NCBI RefSeq assembly: GCF_000392435.1
Contig: NC_021219.1
Span: 360,001 to 392,000, forward strand
Direction: 5' to 3'
Origin: Candidatus Saccharimonas aalborgensis
Lineage (GTDB): Bacteria; Patescibacteriota; Saccharimonadia; Saccharimonadales; Saccharimonadaceae
Length of the DNA: 32,000 nt
Below the pieces are notes generated by a model. It saw nothing but the letters and a program-made list of their open reading frames with translations. It ran no database searches and was not told where the DNA came from. This document shows positions 685-23,317 of the stretch, piece after piece (position 1 is the stretch's first letter; each line of letters opens with the position of its first letter). The translations under genes and the position numbers were made by a program.

Positions 685-1140
685 TCACTGACGCGTGACT
701 TTTACCATGGCGGGTCGGATGACACTATCTGCCAGCATATACCCAGCCTGAAGTTCAGCCGCGATAACTTCGTTCTCACCCTCTGCTTCATCAAACTGCA
801 CTGCTTGATGAAAATGAGGGTTGAACTGCACACCGGGCGCAGCGTCTATGCGGGTAACACCCAGCTCCGCGAGAGTTGCACTGAGCTGCTTTGCCAGACC
901 AACTACTCCCTGAACCCACTGGTTTTCAGAAAGCTCGCCTGGTGCATGCGAAATTGCCCGTTCAATCGTGTCAATAATGGGAAGGAGCTTGAGAACCATT
1001 TTCTCTTCCCCTCGCTCCATCATCTGCTGCTTCTCCATTTCGGCGCGTTTACGATAATTTTCAAAATCAGCGCGGGTACGCTGCAAGTCTCTCGTTAACT
1101 CAAGCAAATGATCTATCTCGTCAGTTTGCTTTTTTTTCAT
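685..1140 (-). CDS. grpE: Nucleotide exchange factor GrpE
   Basis: 151 aa. It has an N-terminal coiled coil (LQRTRADFENYRKRAEMEK, the typical GrpE ADFxNYRKR motif) and a C-terminal beta domain (GYMLADSVIRPAMVKV). RBS is aaaggag. It sits between hrcA and dnaK. Confidence 0.92.
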   Translation of the reverse strand: MKKKQTDEIDHLLELTRDLQRTRADFENYRKRAEMEKQQMMERGEEKMVLKLLPIIDTIERAISHAPGELSENQWVQGVVGLAKQLSATLAELGVTRIDAAPGVQFNPHFHQAVQFDEAEGENEVIAAELQAGYMLADSVIRPAMVKVTRQ

Positions 1141-1375
1141 TAGTTATCTCCTTTGCTTTGGCCAGTGTGTCGTGTTTGTGCTTGCCTTGTTGTGTACGAT
1201 GCGCATAAAAATAATACGTCAACGAGCCACTCACGCCAAATATCCCAAACATGATGCAAAAAATAACAAACGAGCGAACGTCACCACCGGTGATATCGAC
1301 GGAATACTTCAGTAGTAAACCGCCCGAAACAATAGCTACCACAAAACTCACAAGATAAAAATGATAACGACTCAT
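1121..1375 (-). CDS. Small hypothetical membrane protein (84 aa, two predicted TM helices) embedded in the heat-shock operon
   Basis: Start is the ATG at 1375, preceded by a strong GGAGGAGG RBS that lies within the hrcA 3' end. The protein has two hydrophobic stretches (FYLVSFVVAIVSGGLLL and FVIFCIMFGIFGVSGSL). It overlaps the grpE start by 20 nt. I recognised no family. Confidence 0.5.
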   Translation of the reverse strand: MSRYHFYLVSFVVAIVSGGLLLKYSVDITGGDVRSFVIFCIMFGIFGVSGSLTYYFYAHRTQQGKHKHDTLAKAKEITNEKKAN

Positions 1376-1379
1376 TTTT

Positions 1380-2096
1380 TTATAATACCTCCTCCAGCAT
1401 TGCACCAGTTCGCTTCACGAGCTGCATGGTACGTGCATAGTTTTGCCTAGTCGGGCCAATAACACCGATATAGCTACGATCGCTATAGGGGGATCGAAAC
1501 TTACTAATAATCAATGTCGCGCCGCTTGTCTTACCAATTGGGTTCTCGCTCCCGATGAAAACATTTAGTGGCTGGTTGGGTGAAGCCTCTCGAAGCCAGG
1601 GCTCGATATTATCGAGCAAGCTTGCGATCTTCTGCACATGTCCCCCAACCAAAAACTCCGGCTGACTGAAGAGATTACTGATACCGTTCATGTACAGCTC
1701 ACTACCTATCGTTGCAAATCCTAAGTTCCCCGTAAGTTCCACTAGACTATCAACTGCACTGCGAATAGCCCTGTCGCTATGAGCAATCTGAGCGGTGACG
1801 TGGGCCTCAATCGCTCGTGTACTACGATCAATTCCGCTAGGCAACTCTGACATCTGTGCATCAGTGATGCTGTTAACATAAAGACGATAGCCCCTATCGG
1901 TCGGGATACGTCCCGCACTAGTATGCGGCGCCGTGATGAGCCCGAGATCTTCAAGCCGTGCCATTTCAGATCGAATAGTTGCGCTGCTGACTCCAAAGAG
2001 TTTCGCCAGCGTCACACTACCTACCGGCACCGCTATCTCAGCATACTGCTCAATAATCGCCCCAAGTATCGCTTTTTGTCGTTCAGTGAGACTCAT
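1380..2096 (-). CDS. hrcA: Heat-inducible transcription repressor HrcA (short form, 238 aa)
   Basis: The N-terminal wHTH (LTERQKAILGAIIEQYAEIAVPVGSVTLAKLFGVSSATIRSEMARLEDLGLITAPHTSAGRIPTDRGYRLYV) and the C-terminal IGVIGPTRQNYARTM motif are both typical of HrcA. I chose the ATG at 2096 because the upstream GTG at 2123 would overlap the CIRCE site. Confidence 0.88.
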   Translation of the reverse strand: MSLTERQKAILGAIIEQYAEIAVPVGSVTLAKLFGVSSATIRSEMARLEDLGLITAPHTSAGRIPTDRGYRLYVNSITDAQMSELPSGIDRSTRAIEAHVTAQIAHSDRAIRSAVDSLVELTGNLGFATIGSELYMNGISNLFSQPEFLVGGHVQKIASLLDNIEPWLREASPNQPLNVFIGSENPIGKTSGATLIISKFRSPYSDRSYIGVIGPTRQNYARTMQLVKRTGAMLEEVL

Positions 2097-8188: not shown

Positions 8189-9058
8189 TTATACTACCCG
8201 GACTTCAAAATATCGAGTCTTGCACACAATTTCCACCCCCTTTGCTACTTGGTGACATGATCCCGACCTGGCTGTCTTTACAAACAGAAGCGCGGCCTCA
8301 GCCTGCGGTCGTGTCGGTCTATAGCCGCTTAATCGCTCAACTACCGTTGCTATCAGCTCTCCTGCCGTAGCATTATCAAGTTGAATCATAAAATGACGTG
8401 ACGTGAGATCAGTTGTATGATAGCGCCTTTCCTCACTTTCAACGTCTTTCTTCAACTGAATCTGCTTTGCTCGCAAGCCCATCAGCGCAACTTTGTCCAG
8501 TTTTTTCCCCTGTGCCGCAAGCATACGACGAAGGCGATTTCTCTGGTAAATACTACTAGCGTTGGTTGAGTCCTCTACCCACTCTAATCGATGCTTGAGC
8601 GCATAGCGGTACAGCTGCGACTTTGAGAGTTCGATAAAAGGCCGCAAGATAGTAGGGCGATTCAATACTGCCAACCCCCTCCAGCCAGTGCCGCGCCATA
8701 GATTTAGTGCGATAGTCTCTATCGCATCATCTTGGTGGTGTGCCGTAACAATCGTTGCTTGATGGGTAGCGGCTTGTTGCAGTAGAAAATCATAGCGGGC
8801 ATTCCTCGCCTCCTCCTCGCTCGCGTTCGGACCGAGCGAAAGCTGAGTCGATACATACGGCAAGTGATATTGCTTAGCGAGCTCGCTTACAAAACGTTCA
8901 TCGGCTGCGCTGTCTGAACGTATTCCATGATCGACATGCGCAACAATCAGCGTTTCCGTCTGTCGCGCTACCATCATATGAAGCAGGCAAACGCTATCTA
9001 TACCACCGCTGATTGCCAACAAAAGCGGGGAAGTGATTGGCACGGCTGCAATCGCCAT
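8189..9058 (-). CDS. tilS: tRNA(Ile)-lysidine synthase TilS (short form, 289 aa)
   Basis: PP-loop motif SGGIDSVCLL near the N-terminus, and the conserved tilS-ftsH neighbourhood. It is shorter than the E. coli type, lacking the extra C-terminal domain. Confidence 0.85.
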   Translation of the reverse strand: MAIAAVPITSPLLLAISGGIDSVCLLHMMVARQTETLIVAHVDHGIRSDSAADERFVSELAKQYHLPYVSTQLSLGPNASEEEARNARYDFLLQQAATHQATIVTAHHQDDAIETIALNLWRGTGWRGLAVLNRPTILRPFIELSKSQLYRYALKHRLEWVEDSTNASSIYQRNRLRRMLAAQGKKLDKVALMGLRAKQIQLKKDVESEERRYHTTDLTSRHFMIQLDNATAGELIATVVERLSGYRPTRPQAEAALLFVKTARSGSCHQVAKGVEIVCKTRYFEVRVV

Positions 9059-13495: not shown

Positions 13496-14476
13496 ATGCG
13501 AACTCGTGCCGAACGACTTACCACAGCCATAGAAGGCAGTTGGTCGCTAGAAACTACTAGTACCCCTGATACATGGTATGATGATGTCCCTACCAGGGGA
13601 CAGTGCGTTCCCACATCGCTCGTGATCCAAGACTACCTTGGTGGCGACATCGAGCGCCTCAGAACACTTTATGCGGGAGCTTCCGAAACCCACTACCGCA
13701 ATCGTATTGATGGCAACGTACTAGACTTAACGCGCAGCCAATACCCCCCAGAGCAGTCATTTGAACAAGCGCCGGTTGATGGTGATACCAGAGAATACGT
13801 TTTTGCGAACCCAGCAACTCGTGCCCGGTACCAACTACTGACGACGCGGGTTCAACGCCTGATGTACCTCCAGAGTATGGCAGAACACCCCGAAGATTCG
13901 GCTAAGCCGGTCGCTCTATTTGACCTAGACGGTGTCATCCTCGACTTTGATGCCCGTGTTGAGGCAGAGCTAAAGCGACATGGCATTACCGTACCACCAC
14001 GCTCAGACTTCTATATGACTAAGCGCCTTACCGACCCTGAGCATATTGCTCTCGTAAGAGACCTTCAGCACTCGAAAGGCTTTTTTGAATCACTGGAACC
14101 CATACCGGGTGCTATAGAAGCCTGGCACTTCGTGAGATCACTCGGTTTTCATGCTCGTATCTGTTCTGCGCCCATCTCTGGCAATCCGTGGAGTATTCGC
14201 GAAAAGCTAGTGACAGTTGAACGATACCTCGGCCCGCGTGCTGCCGATGAAGCATATATCGGCAAACGAAAATCGGAGTGTTCGGGAGTAATGCTTTTTG
14301 ATGATCGCCCTACGATAGCCGATGCCGCAAACGCCGATTGGCTTCATGCGCACTACACACAGGACTACAACCAGCATGTTGAAACACCTCTCCGAGTTCG
14401 TGATTGGACCGAACTCGACAAAGTAGCCGAATTTCTCGGTTGCGCCTTGAAACGCTCGCGCAGTGTTCATCTCTAG
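13496..14476 (+). CDS. Fusion protein: unknown N-terminal domain (possibly YunG-like) plus C-terminal HAD-type 5'(3')-deoxyribonucleotidase domain
   Basis: 326 aa. The C-terminal half has the HAD motif I FDLDGVILDF and a late LFDDRP acidic motif, as in the NT5C/YorS family. The N-terminal ~130 aa contain W..W....P.RGQCVPTSLVIQDYLGG...THYRNRIDGNVLDLTRSQY. Confidence 0.6.
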   Translation: MRTRAERLTTAIEGSWSLETTSTPDTWYDDVPTRGQCVPTSLVIQDYLGGDIERLRTLYAGASETHYRNRIDGNVLDLTRSQYPPEQSFEQAPVDGDTREYVFANPATRARYQLLTTRVQRLMYLQSMAEHPEDSAKPVALFDLDGVILDFDARVEAELKRHGITVPPRSDFYMTKRLTDPEHIALVRDLQHSKGFFESLEPIPGAIEAWHFVRSLGFHARICSAPISGNPWSIREKLVTVERYLGPRAADEAYIGKRKSECSGVMLFDDRPTIADAANADWLHAHYTQDYNQHVETPLRVRDWTELDKVAEFLGCALKRSRSVHL

Positions 14477-14513
14477 AAATTAGCACTCTCCTCTGCTATA
14501 ATTGGCTGCACTC

Positions 14514-14562
14514 GGCACTGTAGCTCAGTCGGTTAGAGCGTAGGACTCATAAGCCTGAGGTC
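14514..14562 (+). pseudogene. 5' half of a split tRNA(CAU) gene (acceptor 5' strand through anticodon arm); its last 17 nt are the attL core
   Basis: GGCACTG-TA-GCTC-AGTCGGTTA-GAGC-G-TAGGA-CTCATAA-GCCTG-AGGTC. An extended -10 box TGcTATAAT lies at 14494..14502. The downstream sequence has no T-arm and no acceptor 3' strand. Confidence 0.85.
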
Positions 14563-15756
14563 TTTGATTGGAACCCGACCCACTGTCGCACTGTTAATTT
14601 TGATATATTCCGCCAAGATTTTGTCGCCTGACGGCTTAATTTGACGGCTAGAAGCACTTTTTTCACTGATTTGAAGCTCATATTTTTGTAATGCTTCTGA
14701 CGTGTCGTTAATGTCGGCATGTTGATAAATCTGTAGGGTTGTTGAGATATGCGAATGACCCAAAATTGCCTGAACATCTCTGGGCGCAACGCACAGATTC
14801 TTGAGGTTTGTAGCTGCGGTGTGCCTTAAATGGTGGAGCGTAATAATCGGCAGACCCGCTTCTTTACTTATGCGCTTGAAAGACCTTCGTAAATTATTAG
14901 GGTCAACTGGAAGTCCGTTTGATGTCTTAAATATAAGGTCGGGCAGCGGTCCCGCAGTTGTGGACTTAAGATTGTTAAGCACAGCTAGAGTTGCGTCAAG
15001 TATAGGAAGATTGCGTTTTGAAGCACGTGTCTTTAACTCCACATAGCTATACGTGTGATTCGAGTAGTCTACTTGCCTCCTTACACGAATAATCTTGTTG
15101 GTGAAATCTATGTCAGACCATGATAAGCCTAACGCCTCACCCCTACGAAGCCCATAAAAGCCCATTAGAAAGTAAATTGGATAATACTGATGGTCAGAAG
15201 CAGCGCGTAAAAAGGCAGTTAACTCATCTACGCTCCATGGCTCGGCTTCTTTTGGTTTATACATCGGTATGGTAACAAGCCGTGCCACATTGCGCGATAT
15301 ACGCTCCTCCTTCGCAGCCCTCTGCAATACTGCGGAAAGAATACAGCGCATTTTCTGTACAGTGCGGTGCGATTGACCCGTCCTTAGCTGGTTGTCGATA
15401 AATGTCTGGACATCTGCCACACTCAACTTCGTGAGATACTTATTGCCAAGCCCTGGCTTTAGATAAATACGAACGAGCGACTCATAACCAGCTAAAGTAC
15501 TCCTACGAATCGAAGGTTGCACTACTAAAAGCCAATAATCCATATATGCACCAAGCCTTTCCTCCCTCGGATTTGCCTTGAGACCGCTATCATTCTTGTT
15601 GCGCATCTCCACTAAAATCGCCTCGGCATCTTTGCGTGTTGTGGCATAGCGTCTTATTCGCCTAATCCCTAGAGGCGTGTTTACGTAGCAAGCAGCTTCA
15701 TACCGACCTTCTTTACGCTTGTAGACCGTTCCTTCACCCCGACGTCGTCTGCTCAT
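14533..15756 (-). CDS. int: Tyrosine-type site-specific integrase
   Basis: 407 aa. Catalytic signature residues are visible: GLRRGEALGL (Arg), LHHLRHTAAT (HxxR), GHSHISTTLQIYQH (His...Tyr). The last 10 codons read through the att core into the host tRNA 5' half. Confidence 0.92.
   Translation of the reverse strand: MSRRRRGEGTVYKRKEGRYEAACYVNTPLGIRRIRRYATTRKDAEAILVEMRNKNDSGLKANPREERLGAYMDYWLLVVQPSIRRSTLAGYESLVRIYLKPGLGNKYLTKLSVADVQTFIDNQLRTGQSHRTVQKMRCILSAVLQRAAKEERISRNVARLVTIPMYKPKEAEPWSVDELTAFLRAASDHQYYPIYFLMGFYGLRRGEALGLSWSDIDFTNKIIRVRRQVDYSNHTYSYVELKTRASKRNLPILDATLAVLNNLKSTTAGPLPDLIFKTSNGLPVDPNNLRRSFKRISKEAGLPIITLHHLRHTAATNLKNLCVAPRDVQAILGHSHISTTLQIYQHADINDTSEALQKYELQISEKSASSRQIKPSGDKILAEYIKINSATVGRVPIKDLRLMSPTL
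14629..14650 (+). repeat. Two direct copies of the arm-type motif (TGACGGCTTA, TGACGGCTA) in the attL arm
   Basis: TGACGGCTTA at 14629..14638 and TGACGGCTA at 14642..14650, about 70-90 bp from the core. The same 10-mer recurs at 18989..18998. Confidence 0.6.
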
Positions 15757-15955
15757 ATTGCTTCCTTTTGCTCTGTTTTATAAAGTCCGTTAAGTCCTCG
15801 TATGCGATTAATCGTCTGCTGGCAATTGTTAGGGTTCTTAGTTCGTTGTGTCTCATCAGTTTGTAAATCATCCATCTACTCACCCTCAAGTACTCCGCAG
15901 CTTCTTCGACTGTGTACAAAGCTGGATGGTTCGGTTGCTCAGTTGCGCTACCCAT
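15734..15955 (-). CDS. xis: Excisionase / MerR-superfamily HTH DNA-binding protein
   Basis: YTVEEAAEYLRVSRWMIYKLMRHNELRTLTIASRRLIAYEDL is a typical excisionase-family HTH. It overlaps the int start by 23 nt. I chose the ATG at 15955 (RBS aaagga); an alternative ATG lies at 16036. Confidence 0.7.
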   Translation of the reverse strand: MGSATEQPNHPALYTVEEAAEYLRVSRWMIYKLMRHNELRTLTIASRRLIAYEDLTDFIKQSKRKQYEQTTSG

Positions 15956-16185
15956 GTCTAATCCTTTTCTGGCTTCTCGCCCAGCAGGCTGTTTACTGTT
16001 CAGTTTCAATAGGGTGGCTAGGTTACTGGACAACATTCAGCTTTAATTATATAATATTTTTCAATTAATCGAAACCCTTTTGTTCCCTGAGTCCTGTCTT
16101 TACCCGTATTAAACAGACTCTCACCATAGAGGTAATCTTTACTTTTAGAGATTATCTTTATATATAAGGGTTTTCTTTTTAAGGG

Positions 16186-16527
16186 TTACATGAACCCCAT
16201 ATCATCTGATTTTCGTGTAGGCTGTGTGTTCGAAGTAGAGTCATCCTCATCACTTAAACCTGTAGCTGATTTAACCGCTTCAATACATGCCTGACGTATC
16301 TCCTCCCATAGTGGAAACTGCATGTTGAACTCCACTGTGTACCTATACTTGCCGCGTCCCGCTCGACCGAGCAGAGGTGGATATACTGCCCAGTCTTGTT
16401 CACCGTTTGGCGGGAACACCATAAAGCCATTGATGTATATACCTATGTCAGGTATCAGCACCTTAACTCGATACCCAGCACCGACGGGCTTGTGAACTTC
16501 CGCTTCAACCTCAAATTCATTTTCCAT
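16186..16527 (-). CDS. Hypothetical protein, 113 aa, element cargo (weak SpoVG-like pattern)
   Basis: The pattern VKVLIPDIGIYINGFMVFPPNGEQDWAVYPP...YRYTVEF...EEIRQACIEAV loosely recalls the SpoVG beta-rich DNA/RNA-binding fold. The C-terminal tail is acidic/polar. The similarity is unverified. Confidence 0.45.
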   Translation of the reverse strand: MENEFEVEAEVHKPVGAGYRVKVLIPDIGIYINGFMVFPPNGEQDWAVYPPLLGRAGRGKYRYTVEFNMQFPLWEEIRQACIEAVKSATGLSDEDDSTSNTQPTRKSDDMGFM

Positions 16528-16687
16528 TTTTTCTTACATTCCGTTTTATGTGAGCGCTGCCTTGGTGGACGGTATTATATTGACCTTAGCAGCGCTGTTT
16601 CGAACCGTCGTGTGCCTAGAATAAGGAAAACAAGGGACGCATTGAACAGATGTACTAGAACAATACTAGATGTAAGGAGAGGCGATA

Positions 16688-17497
16688 CTACTTGATACTA
16701 TTTTCCTGTATCGTGGCGAGCTGTTTGAGTGTCAGTTGGGGTCGATTTTTGAGCGTGAAGGTCTTGGCTGTTATATCAGCAAAGGGGCTTAGTACGTTGC
16801 CTGAATGAAACGGGCTGTCATTACGGTAAATCTGGGTCAATTGTTTTCGTTCCGAGAAAGCGTCTGGCTTATTAAGCCATCGTCGTAAATCGTCAAATGT
16901 CGTAGGTTCATTAAAGTGTCGCTTAGCGTATATTAGCTCGATAATGTCTAGTGTTGAGCCTGTCGATAAGGTTTTGAGCGTATATGTTTTACCCTTGGCG
17001 CGGACAATCGGCGTTTGATTGACTATCTCTAAAGTCGCTGGTATTCCGTCGCCCTTGTAGTTAATGCCATGCTCCTCGCAAAACCCGATAAACTTGTCAT
17101 AGTCCACGTCATCAATAAACCGTATGTAATCGTATTCTCGATGAGCTTGATCGGTCTTGTCCCATTTATCGCCCCATGCACCGCGTCCCAGATTTTCCAT
17201 AGCCTCAAGCTGTTGGTCGCGGAAGTAGTTTGGCTTCGAGCCACTTTTTATAGCACCTACTTGTTTTAATGCCATGAGGGCTTTATCTTCTGCGGCAACA
17301 TTTGCCAGATTCTCGTCAGTGTTCAGGCTATCGTCCCAGTCAAAAATCCAGCGGTGTTCATTGTGTTCAAAATCCATACCAGAATGAATATCCCTGTATA
17401 GCTTTGTCGCAACAACATCTAACCAAAAACGAGCATTTTCATTCATCTTACGACTATTATCGTACATCTTACTTATATTCGGTAGCTTAACCGTCAT
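16688..17497 (-). CDS. Hypothetical protein, 269 aa, element cargo
   Basis: Clean ORF with coding-like composition. I recognised no motif, including no obvious replication, primase or toxin signature. Confidence 0.5.
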   Translation of the reverse strand: MTVKLPNISKMYDNSRKMNENARFWLDVVATKLYRDIHSGMDFEHNEHRWIFDWDDSLNTDENLANVAAEDKALMALKQVGAIKSGSKPNYFRDQQLEAMENLGRGAWGDKWDKTDQAHREYDYIRFIDDVDYDKFIGFCEEHGINYKGDGIPATLEIVNQTPIVRAKGKTYTLKTLSTGSTLDIIELIYAKRHFNEPTTFDDLRRWLNKPDAFSERKQLTQIYRNDSPFHSGNVLSPFADITAKTFTLKNRPQLTLKQLATIQENSIK

Positions 17498-17674
17498 CGT
17501 GGCGTGTTGAGAGGCGTTTTAAGAGGTTTTATCGGGCGAAACGGGTATTGGGGTCACTTTGACTGTTTAGTTGATTCTAGGGGTATGTTTTTCGAGAAAA
17601 TAACCTTATAATTGACCCCAGATAGCTTCGCTATTCCGATCTAGAGCCACCGCAAGGAAGGTATGGTCATCAAA

Positions 17675-17718
17675 ACTACGTCAATGTTAATCCGATCATC
17701 GGTAACTATTGACGTAGT
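17675..17718 (+). repeat. Long near-perfect hairpin in the element's central intergenic region
   Basis: ACTACGTCAAT-GTTA-at-CCGAT-c-ATCGG-TAAC-t-ATTGACGTAGT. The 11-bp outer arms are perfect, with nested GTTA/TAAC and CCGAT/ATCGG pairs. Confidence 0.55.
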
Positions 17719-17811
17719 CGCAACTCGAAAGGGTTGTGGGGCGAAAGCTCAGCCGGTGGTCGGTTTTAGTTTCCATCGGTTTTAACACGCAAAAGGAGCG
17801 TAGAGAACCCA

Positions 17812-18420
17812 ATGAGAAACAAGAAAACTATCGAGCAACGAACGGGACAAGAGTTAAGTGTAAAAAGACAGAAGCGTCAGCATCGACCGATGGGTATCGG
17901 CGGTGCGCTATTTTTGATTTTAGTAATTTTCTGTGGGATCGGAATAATTAGTGCCATGATTGCAAATTCGCCTGCACAGAAAAACTCGAAAGCCGTCAAG
18001 CAATCGTCGAAGATTGGTCAGGTATCGAGTGATGCTGGTTTTAACTTCGTAGTGAATTCTTTTAAGTGTGGCGAAAAACAAATAGGTTTCGACAATGGCG
18101 TATTACATTACTCTACAGATGCACAGGGTCAGTTCTGTCGCCTCAACATTACCGTAACTAATGCTGGCAATAACTCAAACAGTATTCGCCCGTATAACCA
18201 ATACATCTTCAACGACAAGGGACAGCGCTACGATTATGACCCTGCTGGAACAGGTCGTGCAGCACAGTACGAACTCGGCGACCCGTTTAGCGATGACATT
18301 AACCCTGGCAATAGTATTACGGGCGACATCGTCTTTGATGTGCCTGTGAATGTAACGCCTATTACAGCCGAACTACACGGTGATAAGGATAGTTCAGGCA
18401 TACGAGTAAATCTACAGTAG
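17812..18420 (+). CDS. Membrane-anchored DUF4352-like surface protein, element cargo
   Basis: 202 aa. N-terminal basic region plus a TM helix (GGALFLILVIFCGIGIISAMI). The ectodomain pattern GQFCRLNITVTNAGNNSNSI...GNSITGDIVFDVP is typical of the DUF4352 Ig-like fold; assignment is from memory. Confidence 0.6.
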   Translation: MRNKKTIEQRTGQELSVKRQKRQHRPMGIGGALFLILVIFCGIGIISAMIANSPAQKNSKAVKQSSKIGQVSSDAGFNFVVNSFKCGEKQIGFDNGVLHYSTDAQGQFCRLNITVTNAGNNSNSIRPYNQYIFNDKGQRYDYDPAGTGRAAQYELGDPFSDDINPGNSITGDIVFDVPVNVTPITAELHGDKDSSGIRVNLQ

Positions 18421-18740
18421 TGTCTCGAAATCCCCAAAGCCACATTAGTGCAACTGACATCGACAAAGGTGCGCAAGATATTAAGATGTTTCTTTGGGAG
18501 AAGTACGATCCCAATGACGACCTTATATACCCGATAATTGCCGACTGGGACGACCTGCTGGCGCGGACAATCGACAAGGCGAGCTACAGCTCACTTTCCC
18601 GCGATGAAGTCCTCAGTATTCTGTTTGGACTGATTCATCGCAATCGGGTTGTTGAAGGTCTGTGGTGGTCGATGTTTGAGCGTGGTGTAATACAAAAGCT
18701 GCTACATCAATTACAGACTCTAGATACTGATAGATACTGA
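18420..18740 (+). CDS. Hypothetical small cytoplasmic protein, element cargo
   Basis: Its GTG start overlaps the upstream stop (TAGTG); an alternative ATG lies at 18486. No TM segment and no known motif. Confidence 0.4.
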   Translation: MSRNPQSHISATDIDKGAQDIKMFLWEKYDPNDDLIYPIIADWDDLLARTIDKASYSSLSRDEVLSILFGLIHRNRVVEGLWWSMFERGVIQKLLHQLQTLDTDRY

Positions 18741-18890
18741 AATACTCGGTTTTTGCTCCGTTTAAAGGTACTGATATCGTTCAGGTTTATTCGAGTAAAT
18801 ACGAGTAGTATATTAAGTCCTCATAGCTGACGACAATAGCACAGGCTACAGTAGCCAACAGGGACAAATCATGCTATATTAGCTTAGCAT

Positions 18891-18967
18891 GGCAGCGTAG
18901 CTCAGTTGGTTAGAGCGCGAGACTCATAAGCTCGAGGTCACAGGATCATTCCCTGTCGCTGCTACCA
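18891..18967 (+). tRNA. Element-borne complete tRNA, anticodon CAU (Met or lysidine-Ile2 type), genomically encoded CCA, non-canonical T-loop
   Basis: GGCAGCG-TA-GCTC-AGTTGGTTA-GAGC-G-CGAGA-CTCATAA-GCTCG-AGGTC-ACAGG-ATCATTC-CCTGT-CGCTGCT-A-CCA (77 nt). All stems pair except A31/G39 and the G1-U72 wobble. An extended -10 box TGcTATATT lies at 18872..18880. Confidence 0.8.
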
Positions 18968-18988
18968 TTTTGATTTTAGTGAATAGAT

Positions 18989-19039
18989 TGACGGCTTAAA
19001 AAGACGGCTATAGCGCCAATCATAAGCCGTCTATAGCGC
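18989..19039. repeat. Cluster of arm-type motifs in the attR arm
   Basis: TGACGGCTTA at 18989..18998, GACGGCTA at 19003..19010, and the inverted TAAGCCGTC at 19023..19031. In addition, the direct repeat CTATAGCGC occurs at 19008..19016 and 19031..19039. Confidence 0.6.
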
Positions 19040-19096
19040 ACTTGTGCAAGCCTGTACGTCTGGGCAAAGTCTCCAATATTAGCGTCAATTGCAAGC

Positions 19097-19141
19097 CTCA
19101 TAAGCCTAAGGTCACTAGTTCGATCCTAGTCAGTGCTACCA
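19097..19141 (+). pseudogene. 3' half of the split tRNA(CAU) gene (attR core, T-arm, acceptor 3' strand, CCA)
   Basis: CTCATAA-GCCTA-AGGTC-ACTAG-TTCGATC-CTAGT-CAGTGCT-A-CCA. CAGTGCT pairs with GGCACTG at 14514..14520. The T-loop TTCGATC is canonical. Confidence 0.85.
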
Positions 19142-19180
19142 CAGAAAAACGACCACACTCAGGTGGTCGTTTTTCTGTGG
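19139..19180. terminator. Bidirectional hairpin terminator (18-bp perfect stem)
   Basis: CCACAGAAAAACGACCAC-actcag-GTGGTCGTTTTTCTGTGG. It starts at the tRNA CCA and also lies 20 nt past the stop of the convergent 19200..19598 gene. Confidence 0.7.
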
Positions 19181-22632: not shown

Positions 22633-22711
<79 letters not shown>

Positions 22712-22739: not shown

Positions 22740-23180
22740 CTAGTTTTGCAAGCGAGCAGCTGAGCCGCCGAACAGGAATAGCATCCATTGCTCAAAATTT
22801 GTGAGTGTGCGAGTAGTAGCTGTTGGTGATTTCTCGGTAATGTTTGTTGCCTTCGCGGCAGCACTGTTGGGCGGCAATAGTAGTACCTTTTCTCCGGGCG
22901 CAGCCAAGCCTAGCCGTTCGCGAGCAGCTAGCTCCTTGTATTCATCACTTGCGTAGTAGTTTTTTTGGAGCTGCATAGTATCGACTTCAAGCTGGGTCAA
23001 TGCAAGTTTGCGCTCACGGGCATCAACTTCTTTCTGCAGGGCATAGTTACGTTGCATCGTCGTAATAGAACCCCACACCCAACCCGACACAACAATTGCC
23101 CCAATCAGTATCACAACGGTATTGAGCGTCGTATAACGCTTCAATCGATATATAACCTTTCTGAGTGTTTGGTCTGTCAT
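22740..23180 (-). CDS. Septum formation initiator family protein (FtsB/DivIC-like)
   Basis: 146 aa. N-terminal TM helix, a coiled coil (ALQKEVDARERKLALTQLEVDTMQLQ), and the conserved tail YASDEYKELAARERLGLAAPGEKVLLLP. Confidence 0.65.
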   Translation of the reverse strand: MTDQTLRKVIYRLKRYTTLNTVVILIGAIVVSGWVWGSITTMQRNYALQKEVDARERKLALTQLEVDTMQLQKNYYASDEYKELAARERLGLAAPGEKVLLLPPNSAAAKATNITEKSPTATTRTLTNFEQWMLFLFGGSAARLQN

Positions 23181-23241: not shown

Positions 23242-23317
23242 GGGGGTGTAGCTCAGGGGTTAGAGCAGCGGGCTCATAACCTGTTGGTCGATGGTTCGAT
23301 CCCATCCACCCCCACCA
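23242..23317 (+). tRNA. tRNA with anticodon CAU (elongator Met or Ile2), encoded CCA
   Basis: GGGGGTG-TA-GCTC-AGGGGTTA-GAGC-A-GCGGG-CTCATAA-CCTGT-TGGTC-GATGG-TTCGATC-CCATC-CACCCCC-A-CCA (76 nt). A TATAAT box lies at 23221..23226. Confidence 0.88.

Follow-up and report, generated by a model that had tools for sequence, protein, structure and literature searches.

Probable tRNA-dependent integration of a small element into a tRNA-Met(CAU) gene of Candidatus Saccharimonas aalborgensis

As a general rule, elements that integrate into tRNA genes carry a tRNA fragment in attP, the attachment site of the element, so that the target gene is restored on integration (PMC4383910). Actinobacteriophages offer an exception in tRNA-dependent lysogeny, described for Fionnbharth (K4), Cluster L, Gaia and the Gordonia CQ2/DL phages by Guerrero-Bustamante and Hatfull (mBio, 2024; PMC10865867), in which common cores of 8-17 bp are used, the tRNA at the left junction (attL) is not rebuilt, and the phage supplies a cognate tRNA with its own promoter, the loss of which makes integration lethal. 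Restoring and non-restoring phages occur within one integrase phamily, and a survey outside the actinobacteriophages has been called for, with prophage Lj965 of Lactobacillus johnsonii named as a likely case (PMC10865867). Here we analyse a 32,000-nt stretch of the Candidatus Saccharimonas aalborgensis genome (contig NC_021219.1, positions 360,001 to 392,000; hereafter the window), in which an insert of some 4.5 kb splits a tRNA-Met(CAU) gene and carries a complete tRNA-Met(CAU) of its own. We consider it probable, at roughly 0.8, that this insert is a site-specific integrative element that uses tRNA-dependent integration; in published full texts we found no report of such integration in Saccharibacteria or other members of the Candidate Phyla Radiation (CPR).

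As in the actinophage systems, the element has a lambda-like tyrosine integrase with an arm-binding domain and paired arm-type sites on both sides of the core; the host site, attB, lies in a tRNA gene (the tRNA-Met of the empty site L001, described below); the core is short (11 bp exact, or 17 bp with one mismatch) and leaves no tRNA at attL; and a tRNA of the same anticodon is carried with its own promoter-like site. Close restoring relatives without an extra tRNA likewise occur in the integrase family, here as judged from their visible parts, and the host tRNA repertoire is small, as judged from a related genome (PMC6031116). Unlike the actinophage cases, the host belongs to the phylum Saccharibacteria (CPR/Patescibacteria) and not to the Actinobacteria; the element is 4.5 kb long, lacks phage genes and is known from sequence alone; its tRNA cassette lies within the P arm of attP, by the right junction (attR), whereas actinophage tRNAs lie elsewhere in the genome; and its int open reading frame (ORF) crosses the core. 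The integrase is 27-30% identical to the actinophage phamily members Ximenita, BritBrat and PFR1, and the target, elongator tRNA-Met(CAU), is not among the tRNA-dependent cases in Table 2 of PMC10865867. The element has the three sequence-level hallmarks of tRNA-dependent lysogeny. The first-pass annotation of this DNA had presented the arrangement as a departure from the tRNA-restoring norm, which it is, but it is not unprecedented: it matches tRNA-dependent lysogeny (PMC10865867) and is already known in kind, what is new being the phylum (CPR), the target, and a small element that is not obviously a phage.

Set beside canonical islands (Islander, PMC4383910), the element has the familiar order of a tRNA, then int, xis and cargo, and lastly a direct repeat formed by the displaced 3' fragment of the tRNA; unlike in tRNA-restoring islands, the fragment in attP is decayed and the gene is regenerated at neither junction.

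The split tRNA-Met gene and its empty counterpart

A species-representative genome collection searched with the 5' half of the host tRNA gene yielded one contig, JBAQIS010000011.1 (locus L001), from a metagenome-assembled genome of Candidatus Saccharimonas aalborgensis. In the window, two parts of a single tRNA-Met(CAU) gene lie at 14514-14562 and 19097-19141, separated by 4,551 bp measured core to core, with the following features.

14474..14502, + strand: promoter-like site of the host tRNA-Met, TAGAAA-17-TATAAT with an upstream TG; identical upstream of the intact L001 gene
14514..14545, + strand: 5' part of the host tRNA-Met(CAU), with GGCACTG, the D arm and the 5' strand of the anticodon stem; flank 97% identical to L001
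14546..14562, + strand: attL core CTCATAAGCCTGAGGTC, covering the anticodon loop, the 3' strand of the anticodon stem and the variable loop; crossover within 14546-14556
19097..19113, + strand: attR core CTCATAAGCCTAAGGTC, from the sequence and the L001 comparison
19114..19141, + strand: 3' part of the host tRNA-Met, with the T arm, the acceptor 3' strand CAGTGCT and ACCA, from the sequence and L001
19136..19183, + strand: terminator hairpin of the host tRNA, with a perfect 21-bp stem, kept after attR; the same hairpin is present in L001

The left part reads as the acceptor strand GGCACTG, the D arm, the anticodon stem and the loop CTCATAA, then GCCTGAGGTC; in the right part CTCATAAGCCTAAGGTC recurs and is followed by a T arm of canonical form, the acceptor strand CAGTGCT and ACCA. 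Neither junction is a tRNA by itself: ARAGORN finds none at attL (14480-14640) and none at attR (19040-19170), and with the Rfam tRNA model they score 26.2 and 19.5 bits respectively, both under the gathering score of 29 bits, compared with 60.2 bits for the tRNA of the element. When 14514-14562 and 19114-19141 are joined in silico the product is a 77-nt tRNA-Met(CAU), which ARAGORN accepts. The first-pass annotation had described a tRNA 5' half at 14514..14562, no valid cloverleaf at attL, a right-hand core with one mismatch followed by a T arm and a pairing acceptor strand, and a 77-nt tRNA on joining the halves; all of these hold, the core measuring 17 bp with one mismatch and the 5' half being corroborated by both the in-silico join and the L001 gene.

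At L001 2914-2990 there is an intact tRNA exactly as predicted from the joined halves, with the same terminator hairpin after it. The two sequences align at 97.0% identity over 2,838 bp up to window 14562, and again at 96.0% over 808 bp of the right flank from window 19097 onwards; L001 has one copy of the 17-bp core and the window has two. Since L001 combines a single core with an intact tRNA, the 4,551 bp between the cores are an insertion into a once-intact tRNA gene, and because its flanks align only up to 14562 and from 19097, the internal tRNA belongs to the insert. That tRNA (18891-18967, +) is one of three that ARAGORN finds in the 32-kb window, all of them CAU, the others lying at 22634-22711 (-) and 23242-23317 (+).

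The promoter-like site at 14474..14502 now serves only the orphaned 5' half. It is intact at attL (window 14474-14600), with no terminator-like site found downstream, and transcription from it would enter the 3' end of int in antisense, which could dampen int expression; the promoter of the element tRNA would likewise run antisense into int in the free form.

A split gene of this kind raises the question of whether its halves might be transcribed apart and assembled in trans, as in Nanoarchaeum. Transcription signals are plausible for both, the 5' half having its promoter and the 3' half lying after the promoter of the element tRNA and having a terminator, and the regions flanking the halves form an RNA duplex of -34.6 kcal/mol, against -25.4 +/- 4.1 kcal/mol for shuffled sequence. 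This duplex, however, comes down to 9 bp of pairing between oppositely oriented arm-type repeats that lie about 65 nt from either half, with no zipper adjacent to the halves; the complete tRNA of the element makes trans-assembly unnecessary; and the archaeal splicing endonuclease is not known from bacteria, which also counts against it. With the only complementarity lying between distant arm-type repeats, we reject trans-assembly as scarcely credible.

Attachment sites and the integrase reading frame

The integrase gene and the sites grouped around the core are as follows, P' denoting the int side of attP and P the tRNA side.

14533..15756, - strand: tyrosine integrase of 407 aa (443 aa in the attP form), with Phage_integrase and SAM-like domains
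14563..14590, + strand: vestigial, non-functional tRNA 3' half on the P' side of attP, from the in-register comparison
14629..14651, + strand: pair of putative arm-type integrase-binding repeats in the P' arm, TGACGGCTTAATTTGACGGCTAG; conserved in all related elements
18989..19034, unstranded: putative arm-type integrase-binding repeats in the P arm, two direct copies and one inverted, from the sequence

The cores of the two junctions are identical over 11 bp, or over 17 bp with one mismatch, and at window 14557 attL has a G, derived from the element, where attB has an A, so that strand exchange is placed within CTCATAAGCCT (the anticodon loop and 4 nt). The attP junction assembled in silico runs through GCGTCAATTGCAAGC, CTCATAAGCCTGAGGTC and TTTGATTGG in succession, and contains an imperfect inverted repeat, CAAGC / GCCTG, which imitates the anticodon stem around a 7-nt loop, as expected of core-type sites. 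Elements that cross over in the anticodon loop and use the anticodon stem for symmetric core sites reportedly form a known sublocation class, which is said to go back to Williams in 2002. Repeats of the form TGACGGCT(T/A)A flank the core in pairs, at 14629-14651 towards int and at 18989-19034 towards the tRNA, and their layout on both arms, with the motif GACGGCT, matches that expected of arm-type integrase-binding sites, which they would thereby represent. An alignment of the attL-proximal region with the region 3' of the element tRNA found nothing in common except these arm-type repeats.

The int ORF crosses the core and ends in the 5' half of the host tRNA (...DLRLM-SPTL, then stop), with the stop codon at 14533-14535, 11 nt past the left core edge. 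In the reconstructed attP it continues for 40 more codons into the P arm to give a protein of 443 aa, and integration exchanges the last 40 residues for 4, to leave 407 aa. Reconstruction was possible for seven elements (the window, from 14533-14700 (-) with 18975-19096, and L082, L087, L094, L100, L101 and L182), and in all seven the attP-form ORF remains open for 37-53 codons past the core, terminating immediately beyond the P-arm repeats. A conserved tail, ...RYR(R/Q)xLIGA(I/V)AVxxSRQ, is found in the attP form and resembles the tails of actinobacterial homologues (...LLGAAAVMFSRQ); it shows a weak coding signal, with synonymous changes in 25% of the codon pairs that differ, as against 20% and 12% in the other frames. 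One apparent attP form with a divergent tail, P0065, is actually an insertion sequence (IS) insertion at attL.

Integrase genes that extend across attP are known for IntP/IntX of the myxophage Mx8 and for the SSV-type archaeal integrases (PMC6070905, PMC4383910). The window element resembles these in having the attP core within its int ORF, which acquires a new 3' end on integration; it differs in that the exchange is confined to a C-terminal extension past the catalytic domain, with its weak coding signal, and a replacement tRNA gene is not described for the Mx8 or SSV cases in PMC6070905 or PMC4383910. Integration would thus entail an Mx8-like change of the integrase C-terminus. The gene runs antisense to the tRNA, with its reading frame in phase with the anticodon, and a comparison of integrase tails P0001-P0120 indicates that the residue at this position names the target tRNA, M standing for Met and R for Arg, with K, F and others in more distant actinobacterial homologues. 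It therefore offers a quick predictor of the integration target from protein sequence alone.

The first-pass annotation had taken the sequence after the attL core to be devoid of a T arm; instead it contains a decayed T arm and acceptor strand in register with the real tRNA (GATTGGAACCC versus GGTTCGAACCC). These 28 nt have the length of a real T arm, acceptor strand and NCCA, while also forming the int tail on the other strand, and Rfam aligns window GAUUGGAACCC with the T-loop consensus. In three restoring relatives (L096, L097 and L098) the 28 nt that follow the core comprise a T arm, an acceptor strand and ACCA, succeeded by (G/C)TGTTAAT and then the arm sites. The non-restoring elements keep the 28-nt space, several of them still with ACCA and then CTGTTAAT; only 1-3 of the 5 T-stem positions pair, and the acceptor strand is mismatched in most. 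In-register identity of the vestigial 3' halves to real ones is above that of shuffled sequence (z 1.4-4.3), and those of L100 and L101 are the least decayed. Either tRNA-Arg or tRNA-Met may be the source of the vestige, and a neighbour-joining tree of the integrases interleaves Met-type and Arg-type members, so that it gives neither the number nor the direction of switches.

A visibly decayed tRNA 3' half after the core, in a small (4.5 kb) element with no recognisable replication, transfer or virion genes, could also be read as a dead remnant, in which the tRNA was rebuilt at integration and the attL copy, made redundant by that of the element, decayed later; the broken attL would then be an accident of this chromosome instead of a trait of attP. 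We regard this as very improbable. With respect to the crossover, the decayed segment is on the side of the element, inside an intact int ORF, and the same state is found in nine elements of different hosts and in 37 integrase clusters; because many clusters share the tail (e.g. GSSRLIQA.N.RLMSP), the broken state is inherited with attP. Moreover, the element retains int, xis, both cores and its arm sites in intact form, and the presence or absence of the element between 97%-identical genomes implies recent mobility.

Related elements and the element-borne tRNA

A protein search with the integrase, which is 100% identical to P0001, a protein of Candidatus Saccharimonas aalborgensis, returned more than 80 clusters at 48-79% identity; the nearest relatives beyond Saccharibacteria are actinobacterial (44-48%), and a metagenome scan with the integrase alignment gave at least one close relative among the matches listed. 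The C-terminal tails of the clusters correspond to tRNA genes translated in antisense. In 37 of 85 clusters they end ...RLMSP(T/V/A)L, then stop, without a T-arm signature, which corresponds to a tRNA-Met target that is not rebuilt; two clusters have the same Met-type end with a T-arm signature, 13 have a tail that reads through a complete tRNA-Arg, and 14 have one that stops in the T-loop.

DNA contexts of representatives, located by exact-protein look-ups with up to 10 kb visible, show the same pattern. No tRNA is found by ARAGORN at attL, where the host 5' half and core run on into non-tRNA sequence, in any of nine Met-type elements (the window, L082, L085, L087, L090, L092, L094, L100 and L101), whose integrases are 51-79% identical and which come from different hosts and assemblies. 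A right end is visible in seven (the window, L082, L087, L094, L100, L101 and L182), and all of these have a complete tRNA-Met(CAU) 123-756 nt before attR, the attR itself consisting of the core and a host 3' half. The 5' half at attL pairs with the 3' half at attR in six of the seven, with ARAGORN accepting the reconstructed host tRNA. The elements measure 4.6, 7.3, 10.7, 10.1, 6.3 and 9.0 kb, and related elements share a syntenic host locus beside tilS-ftsH-murJ-lepA. The restoring relatives have a complete tRNA at attL (Met in L097 and L098, Arg-TCT in L096), and none of their own was found in the visible 2-10 kb of element. A broken attL and an element tRNA thus appear to go together across the integrase family, and the disruption without rebuilding that the first-pass annotation had proposed, along with a complete tRNA on board, proves to be general across this family in Saccharibacteria.

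In L182 (6700-7700) an IS with a DDE_Tnp_1 transposase domain lies exactly in the anticodon loop at attL and has destroyed the core, and the element keeps its complete tRNA-Met and attR. It would no longer be able to excise precisely, and the tRNA-Met of its host would be permanently replaced.

The tRNA cassette of the window element comprises two features.

18852..18880, + strand: promoter-like site of the element tRNA, TAGCCA-17-TATATT with TG; kept in six of seven element tRNA cassettes
18891..18967, + strand: complete element tRNA-Met(CAU) of 77 nt, from ARAGORN and Rfam (60.2 bits)

It lies in the P arm at 129 bp from attR, in good agreement with the full-length tRNA about 130 bp inside the right end and the separate promoter that had been noted at first pass. 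Common to six of the seven element tRNAs is an upstream block, ...TAGCCAACAGGGGCGAATCATGCTATATT..., with promoter-like hexamers; similar promoters precede the chromosomal tRNA-Met genes of some hosts. Comparison of the five distinct element tRNAs shows changes on both sides in 7 of 21 stem pairs and no broken pair, a degree of compensation exceeding that in 500 of 500 shuffles and in all slid controls, in line with the compensated stem substitutions noted at first pass. The same annotation had pointed to odd features shared by the host and element genes; these are present, but they are not peculiar to this pair, as G1-U72 and A31/G39 occur in 14 of 14 host and element tRNA-Met genes and are lineage-wide, A31/G39 being unpaired in every tRNA-Met of the lineage examined. 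Element tRNAs are closer to one another (60-77 of 77 positions alike) than to the tRNA of their own host (59-69 of 77); those of L082 and L100 are identical despite different integrases and hosts. All host and element copies keep G2:C71, C3:G70 and A73, which we take to be the acceptor identity elements for methionyl-tRNA synthetase of E. coli.

The anticodon stem is (C/T)GAGA/GCTC(G/A) in five of six distinct element tRNAs, as compared with GCCTG/GCCTA in the attP/attB cores. This difference falls on the presumed core-type site and might stop the integrase from recombining with the element's own tRNA. The stem is closer to the core in L094 and L182, and L094 has a tandem duplication of 184 bp (1100-1510, minus strand) of the core, the element tRNA 3' half and the P arm, located between the element tRNA and the true attR, as expected of unequal recombination between the core-like sequence in the element tRNA and the real core.

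The other two CAU tRNAs of the window differ from these. That at 22634-22711 is initiator-like, with a C1/A72 mismatch and A11:U24, and that at 23242-23317 is Ile2-like, without the G2:C71 and C3:G70 pairs that are invariant in 14 of 14 Met genes; tilS is present at 8189-9058. Going by identity elements, along with the presence of tilS, we tentatively take them to be the initiator and tRNA-Ile2. Between the two lies a DivIC gene (22740-23180), some 3.5 kb away from the split tRNA-Met; L182 has this trio too, and all of the CAU tRNA genes of the window (split tRNA-Met, element copy, initiator-like and Ile2-like) lie within about 9 kb.

These two genes bear on whether the element tRNA is merely accessory, contributing to codon supply or to escape from tRNA-cleaving defences, in a host that has another elongator tRNA-Met and in which nothing is replaced. 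Accessory roles are frequent for phage tRNAs (PMC10865867), two further CAU tRNAs are present in the window, and the tRNA scan covered the window, with the rest of the genome outside it. We nevertheless consider this explanation unlikely: the two further tRNAs look like the initiator and tRNA-Ile2, as set out above; a broken attL is accompanied by an element tRNA-Met of the same anticodon in seven of seven elements with both ends visible, such a tRNA not having been seen in the visible parts of restoring relatives; and Saccharibacteria tRNA sets are near-minimal (46 tRNAs in total in a related genome, PMC6031116).

In tRNA-dependent integration as we propose it for this element, the host tRNA-Met(CAU) gene recombines at its anticodon loop with the short core of attP, by the action of a lambda-like tyrosine integrase. 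With no usable tRNA 3' half in attP, the host gene stays split between attL, which has the 5' half, and attR, which has the 3' half. The element tRNA would supply the missing function; precise excision by Int and Xis would restore the host gene. In the simplest history, a restoring ancestor would have gained a whole tRNA gene, after which the redundant 3' half in attP would have decayed, and with a whole tRNA on board the element would have no need to match the acceptor stem of the host.

Several points weigh against this proposal. Dependence on the element tRNA requires that the split gene be the sole elongator tRNA-Met of the genome, and the tRNA scan covered a 32-kb window of a genome of 1.01 Mb, elsewhere in which there may be a second one. 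Expression and charging of the element tRNA are predicted from its sequence; its T-loop in the window is ATCATTC, with A54/T58 instead of T54/A58, where relatives have TTCAAGT or TTCAAGC, and its Rfam score is the lowest of the set (60.2 versus 65-69 bits). The restoring relatives are visible only in part (2-10 kb), and L085, L090 and L092 have a broken attL and right ends beyond the 10 kb in view. Finally, of the empty attB and the circular attP form envisaged at first pass, attB is intact in L001, while a free or circular form was not found in the viral collections scanned, the P-arm and core pattern giving 0 matches to viral contigs.

The suggestion that the element stabilises itself in an addiction-like manner is weak. 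Recombination of attL with attR would regenerate an intact gene as in L001, and because it does so the orderly loss of the element would cost the host nothing; harm would be expected only if the element tRNA were lost while the element stays integrated. Dependence would last only during integration, becoming permanent only if attL or attR were damaged, as in L182; an imprecise loss would likewise trap the host. Independence of the acceptor stem seems a more plausible benefit. The acceptor 5' strands of nine hosts are of five kinds (GGCACTG, GGCGGCG, GGCAGGG, GGCGATG and GGCAGCG), and a restoring element must match this varying stem, whereas one with a whole tRNA would need only the invariant anticodon loop and so could enter any lineage. 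More tentatively, and with doubt outweighing confidence, it may be that the portable tRNA-Met cassette functions as a host-range device and drives the turnover of tRNA genes in Saccharibacteria; if that is true, a damaged attL, like that with the IS in L182, would mean that the tRNA-Met of a host is permanently swapped for a horizontally acquired one.

Gene content and implications

Between the integrase and the tRNA cassette the element contains the following.

15734..16036, - strand: excisionase, with an HTH_17 / TIGR01764 excisionase domain; beside int in 12 of 12 related loci
16186..16527, - strand: ORF of 113 aa, function not assigned; shared with L082, L085, L097, L098 and L182
16688..17497, - strand: ORF269, 269 aa (252 aa from the annotated start); Saccharibacteria only, with a confident model and no fold match
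17638..17750, + strand: LOOT RNA (Rfam RF03000), then a terminator-like hairpin; upstream of the DUF4352 gene
17812..18420, + strand: DUF4352 protein (cargo), from a domain match
18420..18740, + strand: ORF of 106 aa with a weak DUF6508 match; shared with L082, L085 and L087

Domain searches identify both int and xis, with which the first-pass annotation had the interrupting segment begin. ORF269 has 13 homologues, all in Saccharibacteria; its AlphaFold model has a mean confidence score (pLDDT) of 81, and it gave no match at E <= 0.001 in a fold search of PDB and BFVD, nor any match to Pfam, PHROGs, NCBIfam or PADLOC. LOOT RNA is also present in L082 (7842-7964, -), L085 (7909-8029, -) and L087 (7544-7664, -), always in the divergent intergenic region just 5' of the first gene of the operon directed towards attR, and may be an element-encoded small RNA or leader.

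Protein annotation found no virion, terminase or lysis genes in the 4.5-kb window element, and no recognisable replication or transfer genes. The region had no megablast match to phage genomes, and when IMG/VR was scanned with the integrase alignment no match exceeded 33% identity; the related element L090 carries terminase genes. The window element works like the phage tRNA-dependent systems but gives no sign of being a temperate phage.

How common tRNA-dependent lysogeny is beyond actinobacteriophages was asked by those who described it (PMC10865867), and the same solution is now indicated in the Candidate Phyla Radiation, reaching across at least 37 integrase clusters and elements whose size runs from 4.5 kb to over 10 kb; it would act on an essential tRNA of a single purpose, in genomes that measure about 1 Mb. 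Island finders that seek an intact tRNA gene and a fragment will miss or mis-delimit such elements, and annotated tRNA-Met genes of Saccharibacteria may be element-borne and not ancestral. The int-xis-attP-tRNA module represents a ready design for integration vectors in Saccharibacteria, for which few genetic tools are available; by analogy with mycobacterial plasmids, such a vector would need the tRNA on board. The presence of restoring and non-restoring relatives side by side provides a natural series for the evolution of dependence.

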